Virus record (IMG/VR): IMGVR_UViG_3300037119_007256
Reading direction: 5' to 3' (one strand)
Source: an uncultured virus (IMG/VR IMGVR_UViG_3300037119_007256)
Lineage: Duplodnaviria; Heunggongvirae; Uroviricota; Caudoviricetes
DNA length: 64,000 bases
Shown here: positions 13,949 to 64,000 of the stretch, one piece after another
Layout: every line of letters begins with the position of its first letter
How positions within the stretch are numbered: position 1 is the first letter of the stretch
Notes under the pieces: generated by a model
Seen by the model: only the letters and a program-made list of their open reading frames with translations
The model's database searches: none
Told to the model about the DNA's origin: nothing
Program-made: the position numbers and the translations under genes

Positions 13949-13958
13949 TCGCCGCACC

Positions 13959-15023: not shown

Positions 15024-15074
15024 CGCGGACCTCCTTGGTCCCGTCGGCGGGGAGTATGTTTTCCCTGCCACCTA

Positions 15075-15116: not shown

Positions 15117-15123
15117 GATCTCC

Positions 15124-17051: not shown

Positions 17052-17287
17052 TGCAGTTCCTTGGGCATGTCAATTACGTTGTCAGCAGCAAACTCGGGCG
17101 TCCCTGGCATGTACAACTCTATGCCACCGTGGTGGTTGTACCAGTTGGAGGTGTCGACGATGGCATCGTCGCGGAGTACCCAACAGTGAGCCCATTCTTT
17201 GTTGTCCTTGGGATTGGTAGCTTGTCCAGAGATGAGCTTACCGCCTCGTCGCTTGATCTCTTGGACTGACCGTTGGTAACAGTTCAT
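17048..17287 (-). CDS. Small protein with a possible Cys-His-Asp (transglutaminase-like) triad
   Basis: NCY...HCWV...IVDTS; visibly AT-richer than its flanks; upstream TACAAT -10-like box. Confidence 0.5.
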   Translation of the reverse strand: MNCYQRSVQEIKRRGGKLISGQATNPKDNKEWAHCWVLRDDAIVDTSNWYNHHGGIELYMPGTPEFAADNVIDMPKELH

Positions 17288-35302: not shown

Positions 35303-36142
35303 TTGGATGAAGGGATGAATTTGGAGCCCCGAGCGGTTGATCCGGCGGGTGATTGGATTGCCGAAGCTCGAAGGGCTGCGGCGCCGATTGAAGCGGCAGC
35401 TGGTCGAATGGAGCGGGATCGAGCTGCTGCCGAGGCGGCCGAGATAACGGCCAGGACGGCCCTTGTCGCGGCTCGGGAAGCTACCGAAGAGCGGGACGGG
35501 GTGGTGTGGGAGCTGCGGACTCGGCGAAATATGACGGTCCCACAGATTCGGGCTGAAATGGCCGCGAGTCATTGGGGGCCGATGAGCCGGGCCGAGGTTC
35601 GCGATTCTATTAATCGCACACGGGAGTTGTTGAGAGAAGAGCTGGTCGACCAGGAGCTGGCCATGCGGGTCGAGCAAACTGAGGCCCTGACCGTGGTGGC
35701 TAACGAGGCGATGGAAGCCTGGCGGGCGTCGCAGGAAGATGTCGTATCGGTTGAGGTTGAGGTGGGCCGGGCTATCGTCGTGCCGCGGCGTGACGGGACT
35801 CTTGAAGCGGTGCCTATCCCCGACAGAACGACGACGCGGAGGACGGGCCAGACCGGGAACCCAGCTCACCTCCAGCGTGCCATGGAGGCCCATAGTCGGA
35901 TCGCGGCTCTGTGGGGCCTGGATGCTCCGCGCCGGACTGATGTAACGACGGCCGGGCGGCCTGTCGGGGCGGTGGGGTATGTTATCGTGCCACCTGTCGG
36001 TGCGGACCTCTCGGACTGGGAGGGAGCGATGAACCGCTCATGGGGGCCCGGCGGGGAAATTGAAGAGTCGTCGAACGGCCACCATCTGACCGCGTTGGAG
36101 TCGGGCGGGGACGGCGAGGTCGGCGAGGTCGGCGGGGACTGA
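35303..36142 (+). CDS. Terminase small subunit (putative)
   Basis: Directly upstream of TerL with TGATG coupling; HTH-like segment and RIAALWGLDAP motif. Confidence 0.7.
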   Translation: MDEGMNLEPRAVDPAGDWIAEARRAAAPIEAAAGRMERDRAAAEAAEITARTALVAAREATEERDGVVWELRTRRNMTVPQIRAEMAASHWGPMSRAEVRDSINRTRELLREELVDQELAMRVEQTEALTVVANEAMEAWRASQEDVVSVEVEVGRAIVVPRRDGTLEAVPIPDRTTTRRTGQTGNPAHLQRAMEAHSRIAALWGLDAPRRTDVTTAGRPVGAVGYVIVPPVGADLSDWEGAMNRSWGPGGEIEESSNGHHLTALESGGDGEVGEVGGD

Positions 36143-38649
36143 TGGCCGTACACGGCAACACAGTAGAACGTGCCCAGCGTAACCAACGCGGCCAGGTGGC
36201 TTTGTCGGACGGGGCGCCGCAGGATCTGGCGTGGCTCGATGGGGACGGGGTTATGCGAATGGCCCCTCACCCGGGGCAGTGGCGGGCCTGGTGTTCGACC
36301 CGGCGGGTGGTTTGCGTTCTGGCGGGGACTCAAGGGGGGAAGGCGTTGGCCCTGGACACGCTGATACCGACCGCCGACCGCGGTATGGTGGCGATGGGTG
36401 ACCTGGCGGTGGGGGACATAGTGTTCACACCGGACGGGCTGCCGACCCGGATATCGTACGCGTCGCCCGTATTCATCGATAACGATTGCTATCGGGTGAC
36501 ATTCGACGACGGGGCGTTTGTGGTGGCCGACGCCGGGCATTTGTGGGTGGTCCAGAGCCGGCAGCAGCGGATAAAGGACAAACCACCCAGCGTGGTGACG
36601 ACGGAGCAGATGGCCGTGTCGGTCAACGTCAACGGAGGCAAGTACCGCAACTGGTCGGTGGATGTCCCGGCGCCGTTCCAAGGGGGGCCGGTCGACCTGC
36701 CGGTGCCGCCATACACGCTGGGTGCCTGGCTCGGGGATGGTTGCAGCTCGGCGGCCTGGCTGGCCACGGCGGATCGGGAGGTATTGGCCGGGATGGTTGC
36801 CGAGGGGGTGTCGGTCGGGCCGCCGCGGGAGTGCAACGGCGGCGAGGCCCGCAAATATTTATTGGGAGGTGGTCCGCGCGGTGGGGTAATGGTGGGTCGG
36901 TTGCAAACCAGGTTGCGAGAAGTCGGCGTGCTCGGCGACAAGCACATCCCGGAGGTATATCAGTTTGCGCCGGTGGCCGATCGCTGGGCACTGCTGAAGG
37001 GGCTGATGGACACTGACGGATCGTGTGGGACTGATGGGTCTTGTGACCTGACGTTCAAGTCCAGGCGGCTGGCCGACGGAGCGCTCAGGCTGATTCGCGG
37101 GCTTGGTATCAAGGCCAGGATGAGGCCGCGGACGGCCAGGATCGATGGGCGAGACTGTGGGGTGGTATGGCGGATTGGCTTTACCTCTACGGCACGGGTG
37201 TTCACCGTCAAGCGGAAGTTGGACAGGGTCAAGGACTCGGTCCGGGCCGACGCCGTCCGGCGATATGTGGTGTCGGTGGAGCCCGTGCCCAGCGTCCCGA
37301 CCCGGTGTATCGCGGTGGAGTCGCTGACGGCTCAGTTCCTGTGCGGCGAAGGGATGATACCGACGCACAACACCTCGTTCGGGCCACATTGGCTGTACCG
37401 CGAGGTGGCGGCCCGGGGGCCGGGCGATTACATGATCGTCACACCGACGTACCCGCTGCTTGAGAAGAAGGCACTTCCGGAATTTCGCAAGCTGTTCGAA
37501 CGGTGGCTGCGGCTCGGGTCGTATGTATCGAGTCCCGTGCGCACATTTCGATTTTCATTGGCGGGGGCCAGTCGGACCTTTCCGCGGGAAAGGTGGGCCC
37601 CAGGGGTTAGCGACCGGGCTTGGGAGGCGTGGCTTGAGGAACGGCCGACCACGGTGCAGTTCGGGTACGCCGAGGACCCGGAGAGCCTGGAGAGTGCGAC
37701 GGCCAAGGCCGCGTGGCTGGATGAGGCCGGACAGCGTAAGTTTCGGCTGGCGGCCTGGGAGGCGATCCGGCGCCGGCTGTCGATTCACCAGGGGCGGGTC
37801 CTGATAACGACGACGCCCTACGACCTGGGGTGGTTGAAGCAGACCATCCACGACAGGTGGGCGGCAGGCGACCCGGACATTGACGTGGTGCGGTTCGACT
37901 CGACCGAGAATCCAGTGTTCCCACGGGAGGAGTTTGAGCGGGCCAGGGCTACGATGCCGGGCTGGAAGTTCGACCTGTTCTACCGCGGGATATTCACTCG
38001 GCCGGCAGGACAGGTGTACGGCTGCTTCCGGGACTGGGTCGGGGATGAAGGCGGAGTGCGAGGTCACCTGGTGAAGCGGTTTGTGGTGCCCGTTAGTTGG
38101 CCTCGGTATGCGGGGATCGATTTCGGCGGCGCCAACACTGCCGCGGTGCTGTATGCTGGTGAGTTGGATAGCCGCGGCCGGCGGACAGGCCGGTTGGTGG
38201 CTTTCGCCGAGTACCACGCCGGCGGGGTGCCCTGTGCCGGCCATGCTCAGGCCATTCGCCGCCTGGCGGGGGCCCCGATTCGGGCCGCGGTCGGCGGATC
38301 GAAGTCGGAGGGACAGTGGCGACTGGAGTTTAAGCGGGCAGGGTTGCCGGTCCTCGAGCCGCCGGTGTCGGATGTAGAGGTCGGCATAGGCCGAGTGTGG
38401 GCGGCTCATGTAGAGGACCAGGTGCTGGTGTTCGACGACCTGGCGCGGTATCGGGACCAGAAGGCGTCGTACGCCAGAGTGCTCGACGAGTTGGGCGAGC
38501 CGACTGAGCCGATCGAAGATAAGCACTCGTACCATCTGATGGACGCGGAGCGCTACGTGTTGGCCTGGCTGCGGCACCCGAGGACGACAGGGTCGGCGGG
38601 TGACACTGCCCGGCCCGGCGTGGAGGCCGTCCTGGCGAGGCTCAGATAA
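36142..38649 (+). CDS. Terminase large subunit, intein-containing
   Basis: Walker A AGTQGGK|T, Walker B WLDEA, ITTTP, nuclease GIDFG and HLMDAERY. Confidence 0.9.
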   Translation: MAVHGNTVERAQRNQRGQVALSDGAPQDLAWLDGDGVMRMAPHPGQWRAWCSTRRVVCVLAGTQGGKALALDTLIPTADRGMVAMGDLAVGDIVFTPDGLPTRISYASPVFIDNDCYRVTFDDGAFVVADAGHLWVVQSRQQRIKDKPPSVVTTEQMAVSVNVNGGKYRNWSVDVPAPFQGGPVDLPVPPYTLGAWLGDGCSSAAWLATADREVLAGMVAEGVSVGPPRECNGGEARKYLLGGGPRGGVMVGRLQTRLREVGVLGDKHIPEVYQFAPVADRWALLKGLMDTDGSCGTDGSCDLTFKSRRLADGALRLIRGLGIKARMRPRTARIDGRDCGVVWRIGFTSTARVFTVKRKLDRVKDSVRADAVRRYVVSVEPVPSVPTRCIAVESLTAQFLCGEGMIPTHNTSFGPHWLYREVAARGPGDYMIVTPTYPLLEKKALPEFRKLFERWLRLGSYVSSPVRTFRFSLAGASRTFPRERWAPGVSDRAWEAWLEERPTTVQFGYAEDPESLESATAKAAWLDEAGQRKFRLAAWEAIRRRLSIHQGRVLITTTPYDLGWLKQTIHDRWAAGDPDIDVVRFDSTENPVFPREEFERARATMPGWKFDLFYRGIFTRPAGQVYGCFRDWVGDEGGVRGHLVKRFVVPVSWPRYAGIDFGGANTAAVLYAGELDSRGRRTGRLVAFAEYHAGGVPCAGHAQAIRRLAGAPIRAAVGGSKSEGQWRLEFKRAGLPVLEPPVSDVEVGIGRVWAAHVEDQVLVFDDLARYRDQKASYARVLDELGEPTEPIEDKHSYHLMDAERYVLAWLRHPRTTGSAGDTARPGVEAVLARLR
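36343..37371 (+). mobile_element. Class-3 intein (343 aa) with LAGLIDADG homing endonuclease
   Basis: Begins ALALDT and ends PTHN|T; LGAWLGDG and LKGLMDTDG motifs; W(B12)-C(F4)-T(G5) triplet. Confidence 0.9.
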
Positions 38650-46279: not shown

Positions 46280-47869
46280 ATGGCGACGACGGACCCGAAA
46301 CCGAAGGCCCTGAAGCCTGGAGGCAGCATAACGGTGGCTGCACCGCCGGCGCGTATCGTCGGCGACGTCGGCCCCGGCGGAAAGGCGGCCGAGCTCCTCC
46401 GCGAGTACGTCTCAGCGGAGGAGTTCCGCTGGTCCGACTACCTGCGCTCACTCCCGCCCTGGATAGACGACACCACTCGCGACTTTGGCGAGGACCTGTA
46501 TGAGCGGATGCAGCTCGACCCGCAGGTCGCCAAATGCGTGAACATCATCAAGATGGGCGTGCTGTCGCAGGGGGTACACATCACGCCCACGGTCGACGAG
46601 GAGGACCCGAAGTATCCCGCCGCGAAGGAGGTGGCGGACTTCTGCAAGCGCAATCTGGCGGGCCTTGAGGCGCCGTTCGGCCCGCAGACCACGGTGTCGC
46701 TTTACTGGCAGTTGTGGGACCTATTGGACGCCGTGGCGCTGGGGAGTAAAGTCGCCGAGCAGGTGTACGAGGTCCCGCCGGCTGGGCAGGACAAGGGTCG
46801 CCTCTGCCTCAAGGCCTTGAAGACGAGGCCGCGGCGGTCCACTGCGTTTGTCGTGGACGTCCACATGAACGTCGTAGGCCTGCTGGGTATTATTCCGGGG
46901 GTCGCGGCCAGTGTCCTGACTGGGACCATGGTGGCGGAGAACGCGCCGAATATCCTGCCGCGGCGCAAGTTCGCCATTATGTCCGTCAGGCCGAAGGACG
47001 GCGACCCGCGGGGCCAGTCTATGTGTCGCCCAGCGTATAACGCATGGTGGCTCAAGCAGCAAGCGTGGCCCGAGTACCTCAAGTACCTGGCGCAGTTCGC
47101 GACACCCTCCTTGATCGGGTATACGGCCCCGGAGGCCGCCGAGGTGGAGGAGCTGGATGCGACGGGGAGCCCGGTCTATGACGAGGATACGGGGTTCATT
47201 GCGACGGTGAAGCCGGAGCAGGTGATGTTGGCGGCGTTGGTCAAGCTCCGCAACGGGTCGGCGGCGGCGTTCCCCAATGGGTCCAAAGTCGATCCGCTTC
47301 AGGTTGGCCAGTCGACCACGAGTGAGTTTACGCAGTTCTTCAAGCTGGCCAACGACGAGATCGCCAACGCTATCCTCTGCCAGACGCTGGCCACGGAGGA
47401 GGGCAAGTACCAGACCAGGGCGGCCAGTGGCGACCACCAGGATATCCTGAGCCTTACGATAGACCACGTGCGGCAAGCCCTGGTCAGCGTTCTGCGCTGC
47501 GATGTCCTGCGGAATCTGGTAGAGTGGAACTACGGCCCCGACGCCTTGGACCTGGTACCTGAGATAACGCTGGCCGGCTCAGAAAAGCATGACTTCAAGG
47601 AATTCGCGAGCGCCGTGGCGGCCCTGATGACTGCCGGGTACCTCGACCCCAGCCAGTACAAGCGGATCGACTCCTACATAGGCTTGCCGGAGCGCACCGA
47701 CGAGTCGGTCGAGATGGCCATAGAGGGCAAAAAAATGGCCCACGACCAGGCGAAGGCCGCGGCGGCGGCCGGTACAGCGGCGGGGGTGCCGCCGGGCGAA
47801 CCTCCGCCGCCCGGTGGGCCCCCGTCGGCCAAGGCAAGCGGGAAAAAGGCCCCAGCGGGGGGAGGGTAA
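46280..47869 (+). CDS. Portal protein (DUF935 / Mu gp29-like)
   Basis: YERMQLDPQV, LDAVALG, PRGQS..RPAY..WW.K, EIANAILCQTL and LVEWNYG motifs. Confidence 0.85.
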   Translation: MATTDPKPKALKPGGSITVAAPPARIVGDVGPGGKAAELLREYVSAEEFRWSDYLRSLPPWIDDTTRDFGEDLYERMQLDPQVAKCVNIIKMGVLSQGVHITPTVDEEDPKYPAAKEVADFCKRNLAGLEAPFGPQTTVSLYWQLWDLLDAVALGSKVAEQVYEVPPAGQDKGRLCLKALKTRPRRSTAFVVDVHMNVVGLLGIIPGVAASVLTGTMVAENAPNILPRRKFAIMSVRPKDGDPRGQSMCRPAYNAWWLKQQAWPEYLKYLAQFATPSLIGYTAPEAAEVEELDATGSPVYDEDTGFIATVKPEQVMLAALVKLRNGSAAAFPNGSKVDPLQVGQSTTSEFTQFFKLANDEIANAILCQTLATEEGKYQTRAASGDHQDILSLTIDHVRQALVSVLRCDVLRNLVEWNYGPDALDLVPEITLAGSEKHDFKEFASAVAALMTAGYLDPSQYKRIDSYIGLPERTDESVEMAIEGKKMAHDQAKAAAAAGTAAGVPPGEPPPPGGPPSAKASGKKAPAGGG

Positions 47870-51449: not shown

Positions 51450-51683
51450 ATGAAGCCCCGGCGCACGGATCGCCAGGCAGCCCAGGAACGAATGACGCTG
51501 GCCCTGGTAGAGGCGTTTCTCGCCTCGGGCCGGCCGGCGGTTTACGTCACTGCCGATGCTACTCCGTCCCGGCGCCTCGCCATGGTGATGAATAACCTCG
51601 CCGCGGCTTGGGACCTGCCGGCAAGGGCGTCCGCGGAGGGGCCCAGGGTCTTGCTGAGGCGGATAGGGGAGGGCGGCCAATGA
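51450..51683 (+). CDS. Hypothetical protein
   Basis: Tiles in the operon with an ATGA overlap downstream. Confidence 0.45.
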   Translation: MKPRRTDRQAAQERMTLALVEAFLASGRPAVYVTADATPSRRLAMVMNNLAAAWDLPARASAEGPRVLLRRIGEGGQ

Positions 51684-52564
51684 CCACGGTCTCGTTCACG
51701 GTCGATATGGACCGGCATACGACGATACGCCCCAAATCTTGCCCAGCGTCGTCTGACGGCGACCTGGATGCCCTACGACCTGATCCAGCGTGGGAGGGCG
51801 AGCTAGGGGAGTCGCCGCTGGTCAGGTTCTGGGACCCGGACCAGCCCCGCGATGCTAGCGGGCGGTGGACGAGGGGCGGGTCGACTGCTACGGCCATTAA
51901 GAAGCCGGCCATCCAGGCGGCCAGGACCGAGAAGGGCGTCCAGACCGTGCCGGACGAGGTCCTTGACGCCCAGCTCGATGCCCTCTACCCTGTGGCGGAG
52001 TCGGCTAAAGCGGAAGTTGACGCTGAGGCCCACCGCATTGCCGTTACCGTGAACATGGGGTCGCGGGTGGCCAAGGCACCGCTAAAGGGCAAGGTCCGGG
52101 CCAAGCAAAAGGCGGTCGACTGGTTTGACAGCGATGTGACGAAGCTCGACGACATTGCGCGGAATACAATTGTCGCGAACCCTGTCGTTCACGATAAAAT
52201 AGTAGGGGAGCTTACGGCGAAGGGGGCGGCGGTCCGCCACTTCAAGGCAGAGGAGAACCCGATGGGCTACTCCGGGGTTAACCTCAAGCTCCCAACGTCG
52301 GCCGGCATGGTCGCAGAGGTTCAGCTCAATAGCCCGGCGATGATCTATGCCAAGGAGCCAGAGAAGACGGCCAGGGGTATCCTGGGGGACGCCCTTTACG
52401 ATAAGCTCAGGGCGGCGTCGGGGGTCGAGGGCGGCAAAGGGCATGCGCTGTATGAGGAGTACCGGGCGCTGCCGGAGAAGCACCCACGAAGGGCTGAGAT
52501 AGAGGCCGAGAGCCGGGCGTATTATGACCACATGCGGGGGTTCACACATGGGCGTATCGAGTAA
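51680..52564 (+). CDS. RelA/SpoT-like nucleotidyltransferase (small alarmone synthetase-like) with PRD leader
   Basis: LKGKVRAKQK, DIARNTI, GYSG, EVQL and GHALYE motifs. Confidence 0.75.
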   Translation: MTTVSFTVDMDRHTTIRPKSCPASSDGDLDALRPDPAWEGELGESPLVRFWDPDQPRDASGRWTRGGSTATAIKKPAIQAARTEKGVQTVPDEVLDAQLDALYPVAESAKAEVDAEAHRIAVTVNMGSRVAKAPLKGKVRAKQKAVDWFDSDVTKLDDIARNTIVANPVVHDKIVGELTAKGAAVRHFKAEENPMGYSGVNLKLPTSAGMVAEVQLNSPAMIYAKEPEKTARGILGDALYDKLRAASGVEGGKGHALYEEYRALPEKHPRRAEIEAESRAYYDHMRGFTHGRIE

Positions 52565-54398
52565 GCGGTTCCAGGAGGGCGACGTCTATCTGCGCGAGGA
52601 CTACTTCAAGGTATTCTTCCGTTACGATAGCGCGGCCGAGAAGTTCTACCGCAAGTTCATGGACAACCCCGGGGTCGAGAAAGAAGTCCACTATAGTAAC
52701 GGTTTGCTCAACGAGGCGCTCCAGACCGGTGAGGAGGTCACGGCGGAGGAGTACCAGGCTGGGCGGCCGGGGGCGCCGCCGGGCAAGTCACCAAATACCG
52801 AGGGTGACCTGGATTTTAGTGTGGCCACCGGCACGGACCTCGACGTGTGGGTGGCCAGGTTCGCCTTCGAGGAGGGGCAGCACCCACGGGACGCCGGCGG
52901 CAGGTTCGCGCCGGCGGGTGGTGGAGCGGATGCCCTGTCCCATGAGTTGTTCAGCAATGGCGACTATATATTTCATCGCATAACGGATCAGAACGAATTG
53001 GACGGGGCCACTACAGACCTATTCGGCAGGCCACTTACGAACAAAGAGATTAGCAACTTGGTGGGGGCAATAGACGGGGCCACGCTGAGGGTGTATGCCG
53101 CTCATATGAGGGTCCCTATCGCGGGTGTCGCCTCGTCTATCACTGTCGAAGTGGAGCACCCGCTGTATCGGCAGCGCCGGGAGATTATCAAGGATAGGGA
53201 CGGGAAGACCATCATCAGGAACAAGTCGTTCACCGCCGTCCCTAATGCTCCATATGGGATGGGTACACGAATTACAGCAAAACAAGTTCAAACAGCCAGG
53301 GCATTGGGGGTGGATCGTATTGAAACATGGGCGGCTGGTGGGCCGGCGGAGTCTGCCAACAATGGGTACTACACCTGGCCGCGGCTTGGGTATGAAATGC
53401 CGCTGATCGGCGGCACCCTAGACGCGGCATGGGCTGCCGGGTTCGAAGGCGCTAAGACAACGATTGACCTCATGCGGGCGCCAGGCGGAGCTAAATGGTG
53501 GGAAAAACACGGTACTGGTGGATTGGCGAAATTCGACCTGGACCCGGATAGTGCGTCTTCCCAGGTACTGGACAATTATCTCGAGGAACGGGGTGTGCGG
53601 CTAGGCGGATCAGCGGCGTTCAGGTCCGACATGGAAACGTGGCAAGAGGAAGCGGCGTTCGCCTTTGACGAAGCCGAGCACCCGCGGGACGCGGCTGGCA
53701 AGTTCGCCACAGCCGCCGGCGGCGGGGCAGATGCTTTATCGGCGGCCATGTTCGGCAGCCATAAACGGGAGTTCAAGGTCGAGGACGAGGAGGAGTTGCT
53801 CGCGGCTCAGGAGCACCTGTTCGGTAAGGCCATAACTAACGACGAGATCGCCGACCTGGTTGGCGCGGCGGATGGGGCCACCTTAGGGATAGAGGCCTAC
53901 TACAATTACCATGCCTCCACTGAGTCACACATCACGGTGGAGGTAGACCACCCGTGGTATACTCAAAACCGGGTGATATGCAAGTCGCCTGCCGGGGAGC
54001 TGGTCATCTACAACAAGTCGTTCGAGGCCGAGAAGGACGCCCCGGCGGGCATGGGGACGCGGATCATAGCCAGGCAGGTTCAGGCAGCCCGGGCCATGGG
54101 CGTCAAGCGGCTCGAGACATGGGGCGCCGGTAGTTTCAATGGGAGCATGAATGGGTATTACACGTGGCCGCGGCTAGGATATGTGGCGGAGCTGGACTAC
54201 ACCCAGAGGGAGATGGCGCGGGAGGCCGGGCTTGGGGAGGTTGAGACCACGGCGGACGTCATGCGGGCGCCGGGCGGGCCGGCCTGGTGGAAGAGGAACG
54301 GGTCCGCTGGAGTGATGAAGTTTGACCTGGACCCGGACAGTGTGTCCTCCCAGGCGCTGGAATACTACCTCGAGGAAAAGGGGGTGAAATTGTCATGA
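52548..54398 (+). CDS. Polyprotein: small immunity-like domain + two leader-tagged GNAT-like domains
   Basis: N-terminal ~70 aa ending GEEVTAEEY; two copies of GMGTRI...ARA.GV..ETW...NGYYTWPRLGY. Confidence 0.7.
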   Translation: MGVSSKRFQEGDVYLREDYFKVFFRYDSAAEKFYRKFMDNPGVEKEVHYSNGLLNEALQTGEEVTAEEYQAGRPGAPPGKSPNTEGDLDFSVATGTDLDVWVARFAFEEGQHPRDAGGRFAPAGGGADALSHELFSNGDYIFHRITDQNELDGATTDLFGRPLTNKEISNLVGAIDGATLRVYAAHMRVPIAGVASSITVEVEHPLYRQRREIIKDRDGKTIIRNKSFTAVPNAPYGMGTRITAKQVQTARALGVDRIETWAAGGPAESANNGYYTWPRLGYEMPLIGGTLDAAWAAGFEGAKTTIDLMRAPGGAKWWEKHGTGGLAKFDLDPDSASSQVLDNYLEERGVRLGGSAAFRSDMETWQEEAAFAFDEAEHPRDAAGKFATAAGGGADALSAAMFGSHKREFKVEDEEELLAAQEHLFGKAITNDEIADLVGAADGATLGIEAYYNYHASTESHITVEVDHPWYTQNRVICKSPAGELVIYNKSFEAEKDAPAGMGTRIIARQVQAARAMGVKRLETWGAGSFNGSMNGYYTWPRLGYVAELDYTQREMAREAGLGEVETTADVMRAPGGPAWWKRNGSAGVMKFDLDPDSVSSQALEYYLEEKGVKLS

Positions 54399-54529
54399 CG
54401 GAACCGAACAAGGACAAGGGGGTCGAGGAGCCGCCCAAGCTGACGCCGGCGGATGAGCGGGCGCTGGACAGGGCATGGGCCAAGGTCCGCGACAAGCCCA
54501 AGGCGCCGCCACCGCCTAAGGAGAAGTAA
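54395..54529 (+). CDS. 44-aa peptide (not in ORF track), possible GNAT partner
   Basis: ATGA overlap; MTEPNKDKGVEEPPKLTPADERALDRAWAKVRDKPKAPPPPKEK. Confidence 0.6.
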   Translation: MTEPNKDKGVEEPPKLTPADERALDRAWAKVRDKPKAPPPPKEK

Positions 54530-54530
54530 C

Positions 54531-55355
54531 GTGTCGTACGACGGCGACCTGGACGACGCTGGTGTCGCGGCGCCGGCGCATATCGACATGTCGGGGTGGG
54601 CTATGTTCTCGTTCGACGAGAACGAGGCCCGTGACAAAGCGGGGAAGTGGACCAAGGCTGGCGGTGAGGGCGCCGGTGACGCCCTCTCGCAGCAGTTGTT
54701 CGGCAAGGGCGAGCGGGCGTTCAAGGCGCCCGGCGATAAGAGGCTGGCCACGGCCACGGAGGAGCTCTTCGGCAAAGCCGTGACCAAGGACCAGATCGCG
54801 GACCTGGCCGGCGCGACGAACGGGGCCATCGTGAAGATAACCTTGGGCCAGTCCGGTGTTGGCGGCGTGTGGAGGACCATCGTCAAGGTGGACGTGAAGC
54901 ACGCGCTGTATACGCAGAAGCGCGAGATCGTCAAGGGCAAGGACGGCAAGCTCGTCGTCAAGAACAAGTCGTTCTACTCCACCGAAGAGGCGCCGCCGGG
55001 CATGGGAACGCGAATGATGGCGAAGCAGGTGGAGACCGCCAGAGAGTTAGGCGTCGCGCAGCTCGAGACGTGGGCCGACGGCAACAAGCACTCGCACAAC
55101 AACGGGTACTACACGTGGCCGCGGCTGGGGTACGACATGCCATTGCCTGATTATTTCACGCTCATGGCGGAAAAGAACGGGTTCAAAAGTCCTAAAACGG
55201 TGACTGATCTTATGTGTCAACCAGGCGGGGCTGAATGGTGGAAGGAATGGGGCCGTGGCGGGGCCGCGACGTTCGACCTGGACCCCGACAGTGTGTCCTC
55301 ACAGGTGCATGCCGCCTACCTCGAGGAGAAGGGGGTGAGGCTTGGCACTGCTTGA
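54531..55355 (+). CDS. Third leader-tagged GNAT-like paralog
   Basis: AAGGAG RBS, GTG start; GMGTRM...NGYYTWPRLGY...FDLDPDS. Confidence 0.7.
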   Translation: MSYDGDLDDAGVAAPAHIDMSGWAMFSFDENEARDKAGKWTKAGGEGAGDALSQQLFGKGERAFKAPGDKRLATATEELFGKAVTKDQIADLAGATNGAIVKITLGQSGVGGVWRTIVKVDVKHALYTQKREIVKGKDGKLVVKNKSFYSTEEAPPGMGTRMMAKQVETARELGVAQLETWADGNKHSHNNGYYTWPRLGYDMPLPDYFTLMAEKNGFKSPKTVTDLMCQPGGAEWWKEWGRGGAATFDLDPDSVSSQVHAAYLEEKGVRLGTA

Positions 55356-58300
55356 CAAACCAGGCCTGGTGTGGACCAGCGTGGTCGACGACCATGACGC
55401 GGATCTTGATGGGTGGGCGGCCTTCGCCTTTGAGGCCGAGAAGCACCCGCGTGGCCCTGACGGCAAGTTTATATCGCGTGAGAATATCACCGAGCAGCTG
55501 ATCGCCAAGGGCTCGGAGCTCGGCGCGTCTGGTGCGGCCAAGGTGGCGGCCGTCAATATGGCCGAGGCGGCCATCGCCGAGGGTACTGCAACGGCCATTG
55601 CCTGGAACCAGGCCGTGGCGCACCTGGAGAGCTTGACACCGGCGAAGGCCGACTTTGCCACCCCTGCTGACTATGCCGCCCATGCCGCACTCAAGGCTAA
55701 GGGTACGGCGGAGGCCATGGACCCATCCTGGGCCCTGACGGCGGGTGAGGCGGGCAAGAAGCAGTCCTTCGGCGCGGTGTTAGTTGATGATACCGGACGC
55801 TTCCTCCTTCGCGAGCCGTCCGGCCACTACGGCGGTTATGCGTGGACTTTCGCTAAAGGCGGGGGCCACGCTGGGGAGAACCCGGTCGACGTGGCCGTTC
55901 GTGAGGTAGAGGAAGAAACGGGCCATACTCCGGTCCTAATCGGCACGGTCCCGGGCAAGTTCGCCGGCGACACCACGCTGAATCGGTTCTTCCTCGCCAA
56001 GTCCGGCGGCCACGACCCGTCCAAGATGGACGAAGAGACGGCCAGCGTTAAGTGGGCGACCCCCGAGGAGGCCGCGGCCCTGATCGGCCAGACCACCTCC
56101 GCCAAAGGCAAGGCGCGGGACCTGGCACTCCTGGCGGCTGCGCAGGAGGCTCTGGCCACTCAGGGGCAGCCAAAGGCCCAGTCGGAACCCCCTGAGACCG
56201 TAGCAGGGCCCGTGGTGACCCCAGGCGGCGTCCAGCTGCACGTCGTCGGCGGCCCCAAGTGGGCGGCACGGGCCGCGGCAGGTTGGACGACCTCGGAGAC
56301 CGGCACAACCGGAAAGCTGAACCTGGTAGCCCCCGATGGTGAAGTCGCCGGTCAGATATATCCGGACAATAAGGGCGGCTATAAGGCGGTGCAGGCCGGC
56401 GGGATGCACCTAGGCGGGTCCAAGAAGTCACAGGATGCGGCATTGGAGGCGGTGGCGGCGGCACATGTGTCCAGCGGCAAAAAGCCGGGTGCCCAGCTAG
56501 GCAATCAGAATGCCTACAAGGGTGGACCGACTGTGGCGGAGCCTGGTGGCAAGATCAGTATCGAAGAGGCCGCCGCCGAGCAGCAGGCCCTGACCGATGC
56601 CATGACGCCGGAGGACTGGGCTGAGATTATTGCGGAAGACCTGGGTGAGGATGAGGATGAAAAAGACCTGATATATCAGGTAGAATCGGTTCACAAAGAA
56701 TTTGCGAAATGGGAGGTGAACCAGGCTGCTGGATGGACATTAAGCGGCTTCGGCACTATGGAGCTCAAAAACCCATCCGGGGCCGTTGTCGGCGTTATAT
56801 CCAGCGCCAGCGGCAAATGGCTAATAGTGTCGGGGCCAGGCCAAGGGCCTAAGTCGTACCCAAGCTGGTCGGCCACCACTAACGCTATGATAGCGGCCTA
56901 CAAGGCTGCCGGGCCCGTGGCAACCCAAGGGGGCGACCTGGGAGAGGGCCCGTATGGCACATGGCCGACGGCAGAGAACGTGCCAGTCGCAGAGTCCGTC
57001 GCCGAGGCCGGTCTTTCCGACCCTGAGGACGGGACCCACCTTCACCCGGACGCCAAGCCTTCTGCCGCGGTCGGGCCGGCCTCCAATCCGTACGGCTGGG
57101 TGTTCAAGAAGGGGTCGCAGTGGGCAGCCCTGGCGCCTGACGGGTCGTCGAAGAACTTCTCCAGTGCCAAGAAGGCCGGGGCCTATCTCGGGACCAAGGC
57201 GGGCGCGGACGCCGCGGCAGAGGTGTCGAGCGGGAAGGCGCCCGGGGGCCAACCCGGGAATCAGAATGCTTACAAAGGCGGTAGTGCCCAGCAGGAGAAG
57301 GATAGGTGGGCCGCCCGTAATGACGCCGGGTGGACGGCGGTCAAGCACCCCGGCAACTCCAATCGGCATGATGTTAAGGCCCCCGGTGGTGAGCTGGTCG
57401 GCCGTGCGGAGTACAACGACGATACCGGCTACTTCCAGGCCTATGACTCTAATGGCACACTCCTTGGGGACGACTATGCTACCAGGGCCACGGCTTTAAA
57501 CGCAGTGGCGACGGTCTATAGTAACAAGAAGCCCGGGGCGCAACCAGGGAATCAGAACGCCTACAAGGGTGGGGCCGCGTGGCAGGAGAACGACAAGTGG
57601 AATGGCCTTGAGGCCACGGGGTGGGACTCGGTTCAGGACACGAGTAACACCCACCGGTATAATATCAAAGCCCCTGGCGGTCAGCCGGTCGGTCGTATAG
57701 AGTACCGCGACGCTGACGGCCACTACTCGGCCTATGACGTCAACAGCGTTTTCCTTGGCAACTACGACATTAGGGCGAGGGCCCAGAACGCCGTCGTGGC
57801 AGCCCACAACAGTAAGAATGCCCTTGAGGGAGCGCTGGGTGCCGCCGGCTGGACGAAGGGCGAGGGAATACTCGGCGGGTCGAAAGTGGTAGCCCCTAAC
57901 GGCGAAGTCGCCGGCTCCGTGTGGCTGGACGGCAACGGGAATTGGGCGGCGGTCGACGCCGCCGGGAAGGAGATCGGCGGTCACAAGAAGTCGCAGGAGG
58001 CGGCTCTAAAGGCAGTGGCGGATGCGTCGGGGTATGCCGCGGCGCTGAAGAGCGGGAAGAAGCCAGGGGCTCAACCTGGCAATAAGAACGCGTACAAGGG
58101 GGGCCCGACCGCCCTCGAATCGGACAAGTGGTGGTCAGCGGTCAGCGCCGGTTGGTCCCTTGAGGGCGAGGGCACCATGACGGTCAAGGACCCGACCGGG
58201 GCTACCGTCGGGCTCGTGTCGAACGCCGATGGCCGCTGGAAGGGGTACTACACCGCCACGGCCGGGCCGATCCAGGACCTTGGGGTCCAGCCGCACTGGT

Positions 58301-61300
58301 CCACCGCTGCGAACGCCGTCAAGGCCGCCCACGAGGAGCAGGGCGGTACGATGGGGGTTGCCCACGGGGCCGAGGCCGACCCGGATGCCAAGGAGGCGGC
58401 GATCGCCCAGTGGGGCGTGCTGAAGGACCAGGGGTGGTCCCTCGAGGCGACCATCGGCGGCATTGTCGCCGGCATGGCCACTGTCACGGCCCCGAACGGC
58501 TCCGCCGCCGGCTACGTGAAGCCGTCCGCCAGCGTCGGGGCCTGGGACGCTGTCAACACGATGAACCAGCCGATCTCCACCCACACCAAGAAGGGGTGGG
58601 CGGTGTTGGCCGTCGTTAAGGACTGGCAGGAGAACAAGGCCGCCGCGGATCAACTGGCCGAAGAGGTGAGCATATCGCACCCGGCCCACCCGCCGCTGAT
58701 GGCCCCGGTGCAGGCGACGGGGGCCATCGCCGACGCGTGGGCCGCCCATAGGGCCGCCCTGGTGGCCAAGGGCCTTCCGCCGGGCGAGCCGGGGCTGCCG
58801 GGGCTGCACAAGGCTGCGATTGACTCTGAGCTTGAGGCGGCGATCGGCCAGTCTGACATATCGGGCACCACTCCCACGACCCAGGGTGGGTCATGGGCTA
58901 ACCCCGCGGAGTGGCAGCCTGGTGGGACGTGGTCGAACCACCTCGTGCCCAAGCTGGTGGCGCTCGGCGTCGATCCAAATACGGCCACCGAGTCTGTTAC
59001 CAACTACCACAACCTCCACGGGGCAGGGACAGCCGCGGTCGGCGGCGACCCGGCCGTGGCGTGGGGCAAGCAGCTCGCCGCTGGGTGGTCGGCGCAGACT
59101 AATGGAATTGGCAGCAGTGCCGAGGTATACCCGCCCGGCGGCGGCATGTCCGTGGGTTACGCGGTCAAGCAGACGGATGGGACGTGGGCGGCTGTCGGCA
59201 CCACCACTGGGGTTGGGGTGGACCTCGGTAACCATGCGACCAAGGAGGGGGCCCTGGCGGCGATCGTGACGGGCAAGAAGCCCGGGGCCCAGCCAGGTAA
59301 CAAGAACGCCTACAAGGGCGAGTCCCTTGAGCGCGAGGGCAAGAAGTGGGCCAAGAACGAGGGTAAGGGGTTCTGGTTCGAGAACAGCCCGCTACCCGAC
59401 GGCACGCCGTCCAAGTCGGTGAAGGACCCTGGCGAGGCGGACATTGGTCGGATCGTGTCTGGCGACGGTGACAACTGGCACGCCCTAGGGCCAGACGGTG
59501 CCGCCCTCGGCACGTACGACAGTCGGTTCGGCGCCCTCAACGCTGTTGTCCACGCGGCCGCCCAGCCCGCCAGCGGCAAGGCGCCCGGGGCCCAGCCCGG
59601 TAATAAGAATGCGTGGAAGGGCGGGCCGCACGACATACCTGGTATGTCGGATCATGAGCACGCGGCGATCGAGGTACTTAAGGGCGGGCCACTTGCCTAT
59701 TCCGAGGTCCAGGCTGCCTGGCCATCGGATATGGACAAGACGTACGCGGCTCAGGCCCTTCACAGCCTCGAGGGCCGTGACCTGGCGGAGCAGAGCCAGG
59801 ATGGGACATGGCACCTGACTACGATACCAACGCCGGCGGCCAGTGGCGACCTGGACCAGCCGGCGCCTGTTACGACGGCCGGCGGTTACGTAGCGGAGCC
59901 ATCTGAATTTTATCCTGGCACGCATAACGTTAAGGACCCTGTTGGTCTCACTATCGGTTCCCTGACGATTGGCCCGTCCGGTTACAAGGCGATGACGGGC
60001 ACGAAGAGCCTCGGCTACTACGACTCGATGGACAAGGCGTTGGCTGCGGTTGAGACGGCACATAAGGGGGCATCGACCACATATCAGCCCGGCACCTACA
60101 ACGAGGAGGCGACCAAATGGCACGGGCTCACGGACAATGGGTGGGCGACCGAATTCGTAGACTCGAAGACTTTCAAGGTGTTGGCACCTGGCGGAGTCCA
60201 CGCTGGGACCAGCCTTGAGGACGACGACGGGAATTTCGCCGCCCATGGGCCCAATGGGGAGTCGCTCGGCACCTTCCTGTACCATGTGGATGCCGTTAAC
60301 GCCGTCGCAGAGGCCTACAGTGGGAAGAAGCCCGGGGCGCAGTTGGGCAACCAGAATGCCTACAAGGGGGGCCCGTCCGGAGACGAGCTGCACAAGTGGG
60401 TGCAGCAGCATGTAGCGGCTGGGTGGGACCATGCCTACTCCATGCTCAACGGCGAGGAGGTCGACAACGTCTACTCGCCGGCCGGCATCAAGGGCGGGTA
60501 CATCAAGGAGGAGACGGTCGACGGTAATAACATCCACACGGCGACCGCCCCCGACGGCACGGCGTTGGGCTCCTTCGACAACCACTATGCCGCCATGAAC
60601 GCCATCGTGCAGTACCACAAGGACGTGGGGTACGAGTCGCTATCTGACAAGGGCCCCATCGCCCTCGGCAGCGGTATGGAGGGTATGGTAGAGGAGGGGA
60701 GCGACGACATCCGGGTCATGCATGAGGACCATGGCCACGTCGGCTGGCTGTCACCGGGGGCGTCCGGCACATGGAAGGCGATCGGCAAAGATGGGATGTT
60801 GTTGGTAGCCGGCCTGGACAGGGAGGAGGCGGCCAAGGCGCTCCTGAACGACGCCGTCACTGGTGCAGGAACGGCAGAGGCCGACGCGGCGGAGGCGGCC
60901 GATGCGGCGGCTGATGCAGCGGCACCGCCGCACTACCAGGAGGCCAGCGAGGGCAATGGCCACATAGAGGCGGCCAAGTGGAAGGAGCGCGAGGACGCCG
61001 GGTGGACGACGGTTGTATCCGGCATGGGCTCCGAGGCTACCATCCAGGAACCGGGTGGGATGGTGGTCGGCTCGGCCGTCATGGACATCGAGGGTTACTG
61101 GACGGCCAAGGGCGCGGACGGCGGGACAATTGGTACCTACCTCTACCACACTGCCGCCCTCAATGCCGTGGCCCACGCCCACGATGGTGGGATAGGTAAG
61201 AAGCCTGGGGCTCAGCCTGGTAACCAGAACGCCGACGCCAAATGGGCTATCGCCACCGTCGACGGGTGGGGAACATCCGTCTTTGACGACGATGGCAATA

Positions 61301-63999
61301 TGGAGGTTTATGCGCCAAATGGGGAAACGGTTGGGAAGATCCAGCTCAGCGATACGGTAGATGCTACTGTACTTGGCGAAGATGGCCTTAGCCACGATAT
61401 TGGCCAGTTTGGCACTATCACGGATGCCAAGAATGCCATAGTCTCGTACCACAGCGGCAAGAAACCAGGCGCCCAGCCAGGGAACAAGAACGCATACAAG
61501 GGCGGGCCTGACCTGGAGGAACAGGCCAAGTGGGAGGCGCACGTCGACGAGGAGAATTGGCAGGAGTCGTACGGTGCCGGTGAGGAGCTACTACTCACCT
61601 CGCCGGAAGGTGATACCGCCGGGACCGTCCACGAGAACGAGGACACCGGCAACTTCGATGCTACCGCAGTCGACGGCGCGTATCTCGGCGAGTACATGAC
61701 CTCGGCGGCCGCCAAGAACGCCGTCGCGCACTACCACGAACAGACCCAGAGTGGGCCAGGGCCAGCGATTCACCCCGATGCCATATGGGGCGGCCACGTC
61801 TCTGCCGGGTGGGGGTACCACGCCGAGGGCGACGAGATACATATAACTTCGCCCACCGGCATCACGGTCGGCGTCCTCAGTGAAGGCCCGCATGGCCTCA
61901 TAATGGCGCAGGTGGTGAATGGTCCCGACCTTGGTGCGTTCGATAATAGCGCAGAGGCCAGAAACGCCATAGTCGCCCACCATAGTGGCAAGGCGCCCGG
62001 AGCCCAACCGGGGAACCAGAACGCATACAAGAACGGGCCAGCCGACGAGGAGGCCGTGAAGTGGCAAGCCGGACCCGGCGGATCCAGTTGGTACATTGAC
62101 AGTGAGGGTTCGGTGTACACCGGCGCCAATATGTTTGCCGGGCGTGTTGAGGAAACCGCTGATGGTTGGAAGGCATACAAGGCTCATGGCGGAGAGGTAG
62201 GGACATATGCAACCAAGTTAGGGGCGTACAATGCGGTCGCGTGGTCCGCCGGATACCCCTACCCGGGGCAGTATGAGGAGTCATACACCGAGGCCACGGC
62301 CGGAGACGTGGGCGACCTGGACGTCGCCGCGCCATCGGTTGCTGCGCCGGCCGCCGCAGACCTGACGGCGGCGATTGCGGCGATCGGCCCCACTGGGCCG
62401 GTCAAGCCGGCCGCCCCGTTGCCGTCGCTCGGGACACTGCCGAAGCCCGCGACCACCACCGAGCTCAAGGCCAAGGTGATGGAGCTCGTCGACCAGGGTT
62501 ACTCCTCGGCCGACGTCGCGACCGCTCTCGGGGTCAAGCAGACCTACGTCTCGGACCACGCCTCACGAACACGTGCCCAGCGTAAGAAGGACGTCGCCGC
62601 CCTCCAGGCCGGTGCGGCTGCGGCTCCGGCCGCTCCGGCCACTCCGGCCACTCCTGTCAAGCCCTACGTAGCGACTGGCCCCGTGCCCGCCGGCTTCCCG
62701 GCCGAGCCGCACAAGTTGGAGTTCGTCAAGGCCCTTGGCGGGTCGACCGGGGCCAAGCAGTATCGGGATGCCGAGGGCGGGCTGTGGGTGTTGAAGAAGG
62801 GTAAGTACGCGGACCACGTGAAGTCCGAGTCCGACGCCGATGCCGCCTACGCGGCCGCCGGCATCGACGTGCCGGAGCACCACCTCTACGACACCGCGGA
62901 GGGGCCGCTGAAGGTCGCCAGGTGGGTAGAGGGCGTGGAGCTCGGCAAGTGGGCGGCGAAGGCCACGCCGGCCCAGAAGGCCGAGCTGGTCGCCAGGCTG
63001 CAGCGCGGGTTCGCCATGGACGCGCTCATGGGCAACTGGGACGTCACCGGGGCGTCCGCCGACAATGTCAAGGTGGACGCCACGGGACGACCCTGGCGTA
63101 TCGACAACGGCGGGTCAATGGACCACCGGGCGCAGGGGGAAAAGAAGGAGCCCGAGCAGTGGAACGAACACCCGACCGAGCTGTGGACGCTGGACGACCC
63201 TAGTAAGAAGACGGCGGAGTGGCTTGGTGCTCCCAGCCATGATACCAAGGTCGCCCAGATGAAGGACCTGTTGACCAGGCGGGCCTCTATTCTGGCGTCG
63301 ATCCAGGACCCGGGGCGGCGCGGGGTCGTCGCCGGGCGGCTGGACTCCATGGCCAGAGTGGTCAAGGCGTCCGATGCGATGAAGGCCGACAATTTCTCGC
63401 AGAAGCACCGCGGGGAGTTCGCCCGCCACCAGGTCGGAATGGCGGCCCACGGGGCATTCGGGATGCTGCCGAAAAAGCTCGTGCCGCAAGGCGGGCCCAA
63501 GTCCGTCACCCTCATCAACCCGGAGAACGGCGTAGCGTTCGACGGCATGCGGGCGGCCGGATACACTCCCGTGAAGCACTACACAGTCAATCTGGTGGAG
63601 GGGTCGCACGGGCAGGGGCAGAAGTGGAAGGAACAGGTCCTGGTCAATGGGGCGGTTGTCGGCACCGTCGAGAAGGTGTCCAGCGGCGTGTACAAGGCCA
63701 CTGACTCTAAAGGGGAGGTCACGAGGTTTACCACGGGTTCGGCGGCAACCACGGCTATAGCGGAACCATACAAGGGGGCGGCAGCCGTGGCTGCCGGCGG
63801 CTCCAAGTTCAAGTCAATGACCGATGGCGTATACGACTACATCAAGCAGCAGGGCGGCAACCCGGAGATCATCAAGCAATGGACGGAGTCGCAGGGCGGC
63901 GGGTCGCAGTCCGGCCACTCGCTGGCGGTCAAGTACTACCTGGCCACGCAGAACTCCTCGGACTTGCAAGGTGACTACTATTGGACCAGCGGTTTGGCC
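55342..63999 (+). CDS. Giant polyvalent protein, >2886 aa, 3' truncated (Nudix + repeats + HTH + PI3K/HipA-like kinase)
   Basis: Frame +1 appears open from TTG 55342 to the window end, which would explain its absence from the ORF track. Nudix box GGGHAGENPVDVAVREVEEETG (~55858-55923); kinase LGGSTGA...DALMGNWDV...DN...RIDNGG (~62700-63300). Confidence 0.85.
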   Translation, partial: MALLDKPGLVWTSVVDDHDADLDGWAAFAFEAEKHPRGPDGKFISRENITEQLIAKGSELGASGAAKVAAVNMAEAAIAEGTATAIAWNQAVAHLESLTPAKADFATPADYAAHAALKAKGTAEAMDPSWALTAGEAGKKQSFGAVLVDDTGRFLLREPSGHYGGYAWTFAKGGGHAGENPVDVAVREVEEETGHTPVLIGTVPGKFAGDTTLNRFFLAKSGGHDPSKMDEETASVKWATPEEAAALIGQTTSAKGKARDLALLAAAQEALATQGQPKAQSEPPETVAGPVVTPGGVQLHVVGGPKWAARAAAGWTTSETGTTGKLNLVAPDGEVAGQIYPDNKGGYKAVQAGGMHLGGSKKSQDAALEAVAAAHVSSGKKPGAQLGNQNAYKGGPTVAEPGGKISIEEAAAEQQALTDAMTPEDWAEIIAEDLGEDEDEKDLIYQVESVHKEFAKWEVNQAAGWTLSGFGTMELKNPSGAVVGVISSASGKWLIVSGPGQGPKSYPSWSATTNAMIAAYKAAGPVATQGGDLGEGPYGTWPTAENVPVAESVAEAGLSDPEDGTHLHPDAKPSAAVGPASNPYGWVFKKGSQWAALAPDGSSKNFSSAKKAGAYLGTKAGADAAAEVSSGKAPGGQPGNQNAYKGGSAQQEKDRWAARNDAGWTAVKHPGNSNRHDVKAPGGELVGRAEYNDDTGYFQAYDSNGTLLGDDYATRATALNAVATVYSNKKPGAQPGNQNAYKGGAAWQENDKWNGLEATGWDSVQDTSNTHRYNIKAPGGQPVGRIEYRDADGHYSAYDVNSVFLGNYDIRARAQNAVVAAHNSKNALEGALGAAGWTKGEGILGGSKVVAPNGEVAGSVWLDGNGNWAAVDAAGKEIGGHKKSQEAALKAVADASGYAAALKSGKKPGAQPGNKNAYKGGPTALESDKWWSAVSAGWSLEGEGTMTVKDPTGATVGLVSNADGRWKGYYTATAGPIQDLGVQPHWSTAANAVKAAHEEQGGTMGVAHGAEADPDAKEAAIAQWGVLKDQGWSLEATIGGIVAGMATVTAPNGSAAGYVKPSASVGAWDAVNTMNQPISTHTKKGWAVLAVVKDWQENKAAADQLAEEVSISHPAHPPLMAPVQATGAIADAWAAHRAALVAKGLPPGEPGLPGLHKAAIDSELEAAIGQSDISGTTPTTQGGSWANPAEWQPGGTWSNHLVPKLVALGVDPNTATESVTNYHNLHGAGTAAVGGDPAVAWGKQLAAGWSAQTNGIGSSAEVYPPGGGMSVGYAVKQTDGTWAAVGTTTGVGVDLGNHATKEGALAAIVTGKKPGAQPGNKNAYKGESLEREGKKWAKNEGKGFWFENSPLPDGTPSKSVKDPGEADIGRIVSGDGDNWHALGPDGAALGTYDSRFGALNAVVHAAAQPASGKAPGAQPGNKNAWKGGPHDIPGMSDHEHAAIEVLKGGPLAYSEVQAAWPSDMDKTYAAQALHSLEGRDLAEQSQDGTWHLTTIPTPAASGDLDQPAPVTTAGGYVAEPSEFYPGTHNVKDPVGLTIGSLTIGPSGYKAMTGTKSLGYYDSMDKALAAVETAHKGASTTYQPGTYNEEATKWHGLTDNGWATEFVDSKTFKVLAPGGVHAGTSLEDDDGNFAAHGPNGESLGTFLYHVDAVNAVAEAYSGKKPGAQLGNQNAYKGGPSGDELHKWVQQHVAAGWDHAYSMLNGEEVDNVYSPAGIKGGYIKEETVDGNNIHTATAPDGTALGSFDNHYAAMNAIVQYHKDVGYESLSDKGPIALGSGMEGMVEEGSDDIRVMHEDHGHVGWLSPGASGTWKAIGKDGMLLVAGLDREEAAKALLNDAVTGAGTAEADAAEAADAAADAAAPPHYQEASEGNGHIEAAKWKEREDAGWTTVVSGMGSEATIQEPGGMVVGSAVMDIEGYWTAKGADGGTIGTYLYHTAALNAVAHAHDGGIGKKPGAQPGNQNADAKWAIATVDGWGTSVFDDDGNMEVYAPNGETVGKIQLSDTVDATVLGEDGLSHDIGQFGTITDAKNAIVSYHSGKKPGAQPGNKNAYKGGPDLEEQAKWEAHVDEENWQESYGAGEELLLTSPEGDTAGTVHENEDTGNFDATAVDGAYLGEYMTSAAAKNAVAHYHEQTQSGPGPAIHPDAIWGGHVSAGWGYHAEGDEIHITSPTGITVGVLSEGPHGLIMAQVVNGPDLGAFDNSAEARNAIVAHHSGKAPGAQPGNQNAYKNGPADEEAVKWQAGPGGSSWYIDSEGSVYTGANMFAGRVEETADGWKAYKAHGGEVGTYATKLGAYNAVAWSAGYPYPGQYEESYTEATAGDVGDLDVAAPSVAAPAAADLTAAIAAIGPTGPVKPAAPLPSLGTLPKPATTTELKAKVMELVDQGYSSADVATALGVKQTYVSDHASRTRAQRKKDVAALQAGAAAAPAAPATPATPVKPYVATGPVPAGFPAEPHKLEFVKALGGSTGAKQYRDAEGGLWVLKKGKYADHVKSESDADAAYAAAGIDVPEHHLYDTAEGPLKVARWVEGVELGKWAAKATPAQKAELVARLQRGFAMDALMGNWDVTGASADNVKVDATGRPWRIDNGGSMDHRAQGEKKEPEQWNEHPTELWTLDDPSKKTAEWLGAPSHDTKVAQMKDLLTRRASILASIQDPGRRGVVAGRLDSMARVVKASDAMKADNFSQKHRGEFARHQVGMAAHGAFGMLPKKLVPQGGPKSVTLINPENGVAFDGMRAAGYTPVKHYTVNLVEGSHGQGQKWKEQVLVNGAVVGTVEKVSSGVYKATDSKGEVTRFTTGSAATTAIAEPYKGAAAVAAGGSKFKSMTDGVYDYIKQQGGNPEIIKQWTESQGGGSQSGHSLAVKYYLATQNSSDLQGDYYWTSGLA
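56476..62040 (+). repeat. Ten in-frame K[KA]PG[AG]Q[PL]GN[QK]NA peptide repeats
   Basis: At about 56476, 57232, 57526, 58054, 59272, 59575, 60322, 61195, 61456 and 61987; synonymous codon variation between copies. Confidence 0.85.
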
Positions 64000-64000
64000 T

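Follow-up and report, generated by a model that had tools for sequence, protein, structure and literature searches.

To our knowledge, how a tailed phage chooses the proteins to be packed and injected is known for a few models only, namely T4, the giant phages and P1. Effectors of the polyvalent and MuF-linked kinds are presumed to ride in the head, and we know of no signal for them when they are not fused to a head protein. Cargo of encapsulins is loaded into an HK97-fold shell by short portable peptides. The papers cited here and below describe several systems of this kind. In T4, L/I-x-E marks the site behind which gp21 cuts, and the internal proteins IPI-III and Alt lose their capsid-targeting sequences (PMC9026906). 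The gp245 of SPN3US and the gp175 of phiKZ use an A-x-E motif with a small residue after the cut, show autocleavage behind the protease domain and have many head substrates (PMC10052503). For polyvalent proteins, packaging and processing are predicted, and autoproteolysis by a zincin or by a fused assemblin has been proposed (PMC5512222, PMC9503650); a further source on cargo of the polyvalent and MuF type is PMC12691689, and DarA-Hdf of phage P1 are capsid-bound anti-defence proteins (PMC12810830). Here we analyse a window of 64,000 nucleotides from an uncultured soil phage of the Caudoviricetes (IMG/VR IMGVR_UViG_3300037119_007256), in which five copies of a short peptide tag stand before enzyme modules. 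The genes from 51680 onward are a cargo island inside the phage head module, and each unit is built as [leader]-A-x-F / [SA]-core-linker-enzyme, the slash marking the predicted cut.

The tag can be separated into a core of 14 residues with the consensus [FW]xExxHPRxxxG[KR][FW] and an upstream A-x-F-[SA]. An earlier note on this DNA had listed five leader motifs; all are present, and each of its positions (51827, 52860, 53658, 54606 and 55423) coincides exactly with the codon of the Phe that precedes a core. It had also seen [DE]GDLD upstream of three copies, which we locate at 51755, 52800 and 54540. All copies lie on the + strand. Copy 1 (51755..51868) comprises DGDLD, V-R-F at 51821-51829 without the Ala three residues before the predicted cut, and the core at 51830-51868. 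Copy 2 (52800..52907) has EGDLD, A-R-F/A at 52854-52865 and its core at 52866-52907, and copy 3 (53628..53705) has A-A-F/A at 53652-53663 followed by the core at 53664-53705; both lie inside one open reading frame (ORF) of 615 residues, as the note had said of two internal copies. Copy 4 (54540..54650) consists of DGDLD, A-M-F/S at 54600-54611 and the core at 54612-54650, and copy 5 (55402..55470) of A-A-F/A at 55417-55428 and the core at 55429-55470. A loose regular expression for the core, run over the six frames of the 64 kb, gave nine matches: these five copies within 3.6 kb, and four in frames judged non-coding. The claim that the leader precedes every enzyme module does not hold, since a kinase-like region lies about 2,400 residues past the only core of its giant ORF and has no core of its own.

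The tagged genes are bracketed by a Mu-type portal gene on the 5′ side (46280..47869, + strand; PF06074, E 1.7e-46) and by a prohead protease-scaffold gene and the major capsid gene on the 3′ side. The downstream genes were read from an IMG/VR contig of the same phage (L014), which extends past the window end inside the giant ORF. The protease-scaffold (320 residues, L014:10225-11187) has an assemblin fold, the major capsid gene (Phage_cap_E) is at L014:11667-12695 (PF03864, E 4.9e-12), and a likely decoration gene stands beside them. In the structural model of the protease-scaffold (predicted local distance difference test score 86.7), the first 120 residues are predicted to fold like T4 gp21 (Z 9.8, root-mean-square deviation 2.9, 108 residues aligned), with further matches to the proteases of varicella-zoster virus (Z 9.5) and human cytomegalovirus (Z 7.2). 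His45 and Ser91 are conserved without exception in the 152 homologues, and the residue that closes the protease domain is Phe in 129 of them and Tyr in 18. No Pfam or PHROG profile, including Mu-like_Pro (PF10123), matched the protein above the cut-off, and Mu-like_Pro and GPO are Atlas leads only, unconfirmed. The family is large, with 936 representatives at E 0.001, and the protein at L014:10225-11187 is a member without a Pfam or PHROG profile. The protease-scaffolds of L203, L204, L206, L199 and L207 are Tyr/Phe-marked.

A scan of the phage's own scaffold, which the earlier note had proposed, found the leader's A-x-F-[STA] there eight times. Eight of the nine Phe residues of the protein precede Ala, Ser or Thr, all of them within this motif (8 observed vs 0.5 expected, p 6e-8, for a motif defined after its sites had been seen, the Phe prediction itself having been written beforehand). 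Across the 152 family proteins, 546 occurrences were observed vs 96.6 expected, and the other 35 ORFs counted were at chance level. A-x-F-[SA] stands immediately before four of the five cores, and one family member, P0006, carries a core right after its junction Phe. By analogy with the L/I-x-E of T4 and the A-x-E of SPN3US, A-x-F is most likely the cut site of this protease. From these sequence patterns, we consider it highly probable that the protease of this phage cuts after Phe.

The core is widespread in unrelated phages, as emerged from the scan of other phages that the earlier note had also called for. The shorter pattern HPRDxxGKF occurs in at least 132 stretches of viral contigs and at least 121 of cellular genomes, and the statistics of the core rest on the matches listed. 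Among these, 125 distinct viral HPRD..GKF stretches have an aromatic residue at position -6 in 118 cases and Glu at -4 in 101, although both positions were free in the search pattern. The cellular matches listed have an aromatic residue at -6 in just 34 of 83 (raw), so that the part of nine residues, taken by itself, also turns up by chance. The core is followed by a Gly-rich linker, and up to six cores are found in one protein. After 16 long ORFs and one near-duplicate had been set aside, a domain scan covered 70 of the 87 viral ORFs that bear a tag; its results were counted by hand. It revealed 15 fusions to a portal, in which the core always comes after the portal domain, six to a protease and three to MuF. 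In 25 of the 70, a Pfam cargo domain lies within about 150 residues after a core, and these domains include LPD3, LPD13, ADP-ribosyltransferase (ART), zeta toxin, TopIB, PBECR1, GNAT, Nudix, RelA/SpoT, SAM lyase and a CCA-type polymerase. Among the matches listed, the core directly follows Met in 13 of 170 viral and 14 of 32 cellular cases; the core can thus stand without any leader. Met-adjacent cores are located beside Phage_min_cap2 genes at L237 (with an SPP1-type portal) and L270, and heads of the Phage_min_cap2 and SPP1 type are not known to have a maturation protease. At 10 of the 21 genomic loci scanned, the tag ORF contains or adjoins a gene for a virion or packaging function; of the remainder, one core is in an Rhs-like protein, and at 10 loci the closest neighbours tested include no virion gene.

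Other searches with the tag gave little. It matched no PDB chain and, in the Atlas, just unnamed clusters below 0.9; tblastn of the short tags against cultured phages returned nothing usable and identified no cultured model; complex prediction of the capsid protein with the tag scored 0.00. Other short Gly-turn peptides occupy the same slot, behind predicted cut sites, in L057, L072, P0155, P0165, P0174, P0177 and P0180. They are of the types NxNHDxxGRF, WxTIxG, PRVPAG and GGPGSG, and are possibly interchangeable retained elements.

The residues before the core vary between phages and recur within one phage, the predicted cut residue being of type D, N, E, K, R, A or F/Y. Protease families were sought in 50 contigs, namely the 49 longest tag contigs and this phage's own, and comprised DUF2213 in 18, S78_2 in five, S78 in three, S77 and ClpP in one weak case each, and Mu-like_Pro in none; a regular-expression search for proteases was uninformative. 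Family predictions written in advance held for the D type and partly for the K and R types. For the co-variation analysis, 37 phages in which a protease or scaffold ORF was found (by hidden Markov models, PHROGs or eye) were used after near-duplicates had been merged, with 71 tags in total. With the tags masked, the residue before the predicted cut was chosen by one fixed rule: within the last 400 residues of the ORF, it is the residue with the strongest enrichment at sites flanked by a hydrophobic and a small residue. This scaffold-derived residue is present at positions -4..-1 before the core at a frequency of 0.57, vs 0.34±0.06 after shuffling (p 0.0004, 37 phages), and four control windows from -8..-5 to -20..-17 are not significant (p 0.46-0.88). 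When the 18 phages of the D group are removed, the remaining 19 give 0.63 vs 0.29 (p 0.0004). Asp stands in -4..-1 at a frequency of 0.92 in the D group vs 0.27 elsewhere. For single phages, the junction residues given here were identified by eye; in the DUF2213 proteases of L044 and L079, Asn replaces Asp at the junction, and Asn also precedes the core.

These scaffold, junction and co-variation data bear on two claims of the earlier note, that of a cut after Phe and that of a retained PRD..G[RK][FW] element. Both are supported by inference, the first from the A-x-F-[STA] of the own scaffold, the Phe closing the protease domain and the pre-core residue that tracks the scaffold, and the second from the same data. 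Two further parts of its scheme were rejected. An acidic-Trp docking element is not a general part of the tag: GDLD is found in none of 184 stored proteins save the window's own P0153, and many cores follow Met. Likewise, a dependence on MuF does not apply to this phage, as no PF04233 match was obtained in the window ORFs or in the contig that spans portal to capsid.

Several observations count against a protease-matched cut followed by a loading core. The rule for the residue before the cut was devised after the data had been seen, the 37 ORFs were chosen by us, partly by eye, and the phages are related. The automatic call misses about four of ten cases; L020 and L034 are clear mismatches, and L046, L048 and L081 have a matching Lys 9-11 residues upstream of the core, which was recognised post hoc. 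Pfam searches for S77, ClpP and Mu-like_Pro did not bear out the family predictions for the E, A and F types. In a reverse test, we collected 13 further contigs in which Phe stands two residues before the core, and 10 of them yielded a protease or scaffold ORF; by eye, five of the 10 are aromatic-marked and five are of the D, K, A, R and A types. The automatic top calls gave 2-3 of 10 vs 1-3 of 36 (p 0.11), and the aromatic score gave p 0.06 and 0.003 under two rules. The idea that Phe at -2 is enough to predict a Phe-type protease was thus rejected. A held-out set of 79 genome loci contained 41 with a tag and just five with a detectable protease, four of them DUF2213, and is too small for its p of 0.80 to carry weight; in these four, Asp stands in -4..-1 in 0.94 of the tags. 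Within the phage itself, copy 1, with V-R-F, lacks the Ala of the motif. The core is carried by just one of 152 protease proteins (P0006), and no credible core was found up to 10 kb on each side of 25 loci with related proteases (from 32 fetched, this phage's own and near-duplicates being left out), so cargo islands are optional. Finally, fusion of cargo to a portal or scaffold makes a loading signal redundant.

Taking both sides together, we favour by a modest balance an explanation in which a cut matched to the protease is combined with a retained core that serves as the loading or anchoring peptide. Precursors would enter the prohead, where the protease would cut after the Phe of A-x-F, as in its own scaffold, and free each enzyme; the same cut would split the polyprotein modules from the immunity domain. 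Each freed enzyme would hold the 14-residue core at its new N-terminus until ejection, when it would exit together with the DNA to act on the host infected next. The immunity domain is on the removed side, so the synthetase could reach the next cell unguarded. The site before the core would be tuned to the protease of each phage, the core itself being common to unrelated phages. That the cargo travels in the head is as probable as the cut after Phe. The assignment of loading or anchoring to the core is only somewhat better than even; the core is favoured for this role because it is able to stand alone after Met. It is also kept in portal and scaffold fusions, which leaves room for a post-cut role in ejection. 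The broader proposal, that the core is a universal, self-sufficient head-cargo peptide across unrelated tailed phages of many host phyla, which adapt cassettes by changing the pre-core residues, is tentative and at present rather doubtful.

The alternative that survives best, though we regard it as unlikely, assigns loading to a removable leader (GDLD/DxxW, or a fused portal, MuF or scaffold), with the retained core acting after the cut as an escort with the DNA or in docking to the portal. It agrees with the T4 capsid-targeting sequences, which are cleaved propeptides (PMC9026906). It would also account for the 24 of 70 tag ORFs that are already fused to a head protein and yet keep the core, for the leader kept by all three stand-alone copies of this phage, and for a core that stands where the N-terminus of the released unit is predicted, or close to it. 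However, many cores follow Met without any leader, some of them in genes next to those for baseplate proteins (L245, L283). Among the stored proteins, GDLD is limited to this phage, and the frequent acidity of the core is not what a typical DNA binder would show. A reading in which the cut sites are real and the core has no targeting role, being a small cap for folding or a relic that travels with mobile cargo cassettes, is still less likely. Three of the five copies stem from the duplication of one module, the GNAT-like homologues are mostly coreless, and the core in the Rhs-like protein (L268) and the 10 loci without a nearby virion gene would fit such a relic; a relic would hardly keep the same 14 positions before unrelated folds (ART, zeta toxin, TopIB, PBECR, LPD3/13, Nudix, RelA and SAM lyase) or recur up to six times per protein before a Gly-rich linker. 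Very unlikely is a scheme without prohead processing, in which internal starts or a host protease separate the units and the enzymes are toxin-antitoxin or anti-defence proteins of the infected cell. In its favour are an in-frame ATG (53631) with a weak Shine-Dalgarno sequence in copy 3 and the order of synthetase and immunity domain, which is that of toxin-immunity pairs. It leaves unexplained the match of the pre-core residue to each phage's scaffold and the portal and protease fusions, and immunity genes also accompany MuF toxins, which are presumed to be carried in the head (PMC12226406).

The cargo enzymes of the island differ in how well they can be named. The identities of the synthetase and the Nudix domain are firm, and that of the GNAT module is likely. 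The tagged synthetase (294 residues, 51680..52564, +) matches Tas1 (phmmer against 6OX6, E 3.8e-43, residues 91-286) and is directly followed by a Tis1 immunity domain (52560..52763, +; PF24154, E 9.5e-14), located upstream of the predicted cut at the start of the 615-residue polyprotein (52551..54398, +), in which leader and GNAT-like module then occur twice. By homology and adjacency, the two constitute a Tas1/Apk1-like pair, the product being predicted as (p)ppApp, and we infer that the Tis1 domain is the cognate immunity of the upstream synthetase. A 44-residue ORF read from the sequence at 54395..54529 (+), without a Pfam or PHROG match, could at a guess encode a small antitoxin. It is followed by a stand-alone tagged GNAT-like protein of 274 residues with a GTG start (54531..55355, +). 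The GNAT-like modules of copies 2-4 are paralogues with 50-54% identity, so the five copies stand for just three kinds of cargo. These modules have no direct Pfam match. Searches with the module retrieved 32 proteins, two of them from this phage; one homologue (P0161) matches PF00583, and structural matches to acetyltransferase folds are weak (Z under 5). The loose core motif is found in eight of the 32, two being this phage's own, and Lys or Arg precedes the cores in the homologues of other phages.

The giant ORF of about 3,046 residues (55342..64000, +, ending beyond the window at L014:9821) has an uncertain start, TTG at 55342 or GTG at 55381. It comprises in order the tag, the Nudix domain (55759..56082, +; PF00293, E 1.3e-13), a repeat region, a helix-turn-helix (HTH), a kinase-like region and an ART-like C-terminus. 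The kinase-like and ART-like regions have no Pfam or PDB match, and their labels are our assumption from motifs, unconfirmed by any profile. At 56485-62020 (+), ten PG[AG]Q[PL]GN[KQ]NA repeats lie between small beta-rich units; we take the repeat to resemble the N-termini of small terminases, and it is possibly DNA-binding. GDLD without a core is present at about 59845 and 62311 of this ORF; the latter precedes the HTH-kinase-like part, shows DNA-level likeness to the copy-4 leader and is perhaps a relic of a once separate gene. At L014:8652-10228 stands the ART-like end of the ORF and then a 132-residue ORF, maybe for its immunity protein. With the Immunity-GNAT-GNAT ORF and the Nudix-HTH-kinase-like ORF, both between portal and protease, the island has several unrelated enzyme domains per head-module polypeptide, as phage polyvalent proteins do.

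The tagged region, including the polyprotein ORF at 52551-54398, was found in a single, variant-free contig in two of four sequencing runs, both of which are possibly the source; the contigs checked revealed no cassette shuffling and no variants. Elsewhere in the window, the large terminase subunit (36064-38649) appears on inspection to hold an intein with a homing endonuclease, and thymidylate-synthase-like, deaminase-like, kinase-like and methyltransferase-like genes at 11061-17069 (-) suggest modified DNA. Armatimonadota among the look-alike protein clusters are a lead only. In a Desulfovibrio genome (L268:8564-10546), a core lies in an Rhs/YD-shell protein before a glucosaminidase domain, which suggests that a tagged cassette moved into a secreted toxin.

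A short motif that recurs across phages would flag injected anti-host proteins directly, unannotated ones included, and would predict the specificities of prohead proteases (Phe, Asp, Asn and others), for which our searches of the open-licence literature found no report. With it, the loading question would become testable with one reporter fusion. If the core were indeed universal and self-sufficient, injected proteins and protease specificities could be read from sequence, and a minimal tag would be at hand for loading chosen proteins into many phage heads. The core resembles the encapsulin peptides in a short, portable form that could load unrelated enzymes; its sequence differs from theirs, and its role is a predicted one.

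Compared with the T4 gp21 system, this locus is alike in the assemblin-fold protease and in a short three-residue cut motif common to scaffold and cargo. T4 packs and injects anti-host proteins, and its tag can carry foreign proteins (PMC9026906); the likeness here is predicted from sequence. In T4 the targeting peptide is removed; here, by prediction, the cut falls behind A-x-F, and the conserved element, which unrelated phages share, would stay on the product. As regards a T4-type targeting sequence, leaders with a predicted cut exist here, but the part conserved across phages lies behind that predicted cut and can directly follow Met. SPN3US and phiKZ share the form of the motif, Ala two residues before the cut residue and a small residue after it, but have Glu at the cut, and no retained common peptide is described in the accessible part of PMC10052503. 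Polyvalent proteins have the same classes of cargo (GNAT, Nudix, RelA/SpoT, ART, kinase, LPD and PBECR) and fusions to portal, MuF and head peptidases; no short leader is named in the accessible parts of PMC5512222 and PMC9503650, whose file-transfer (FTP) supplements might hold such a motif. More generally, our searches of the open-licence literature found no description of the core or of a Phe-specific prohead protease. The MuF toxins Apk2-IapK (PMC5576092, PMC12226406) and Tas1/Apk1-Tis1 resemble the island in a (p)ppApp-synthetase-like toxin followed by an immunity gene among head genes. Unlike them, this phage has no MuF or PAAR domain and carries a 14-residue core with a predicted cut site instead, and its immunity domain forms one polypeptide with the cargo precursor that follows. 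Collectively, the sequence comparisons suggest that the protease and targeting scheme works like that of T4 with cargo of the polyvalent and MuF type and with a core that is common to many phages and would be retained.

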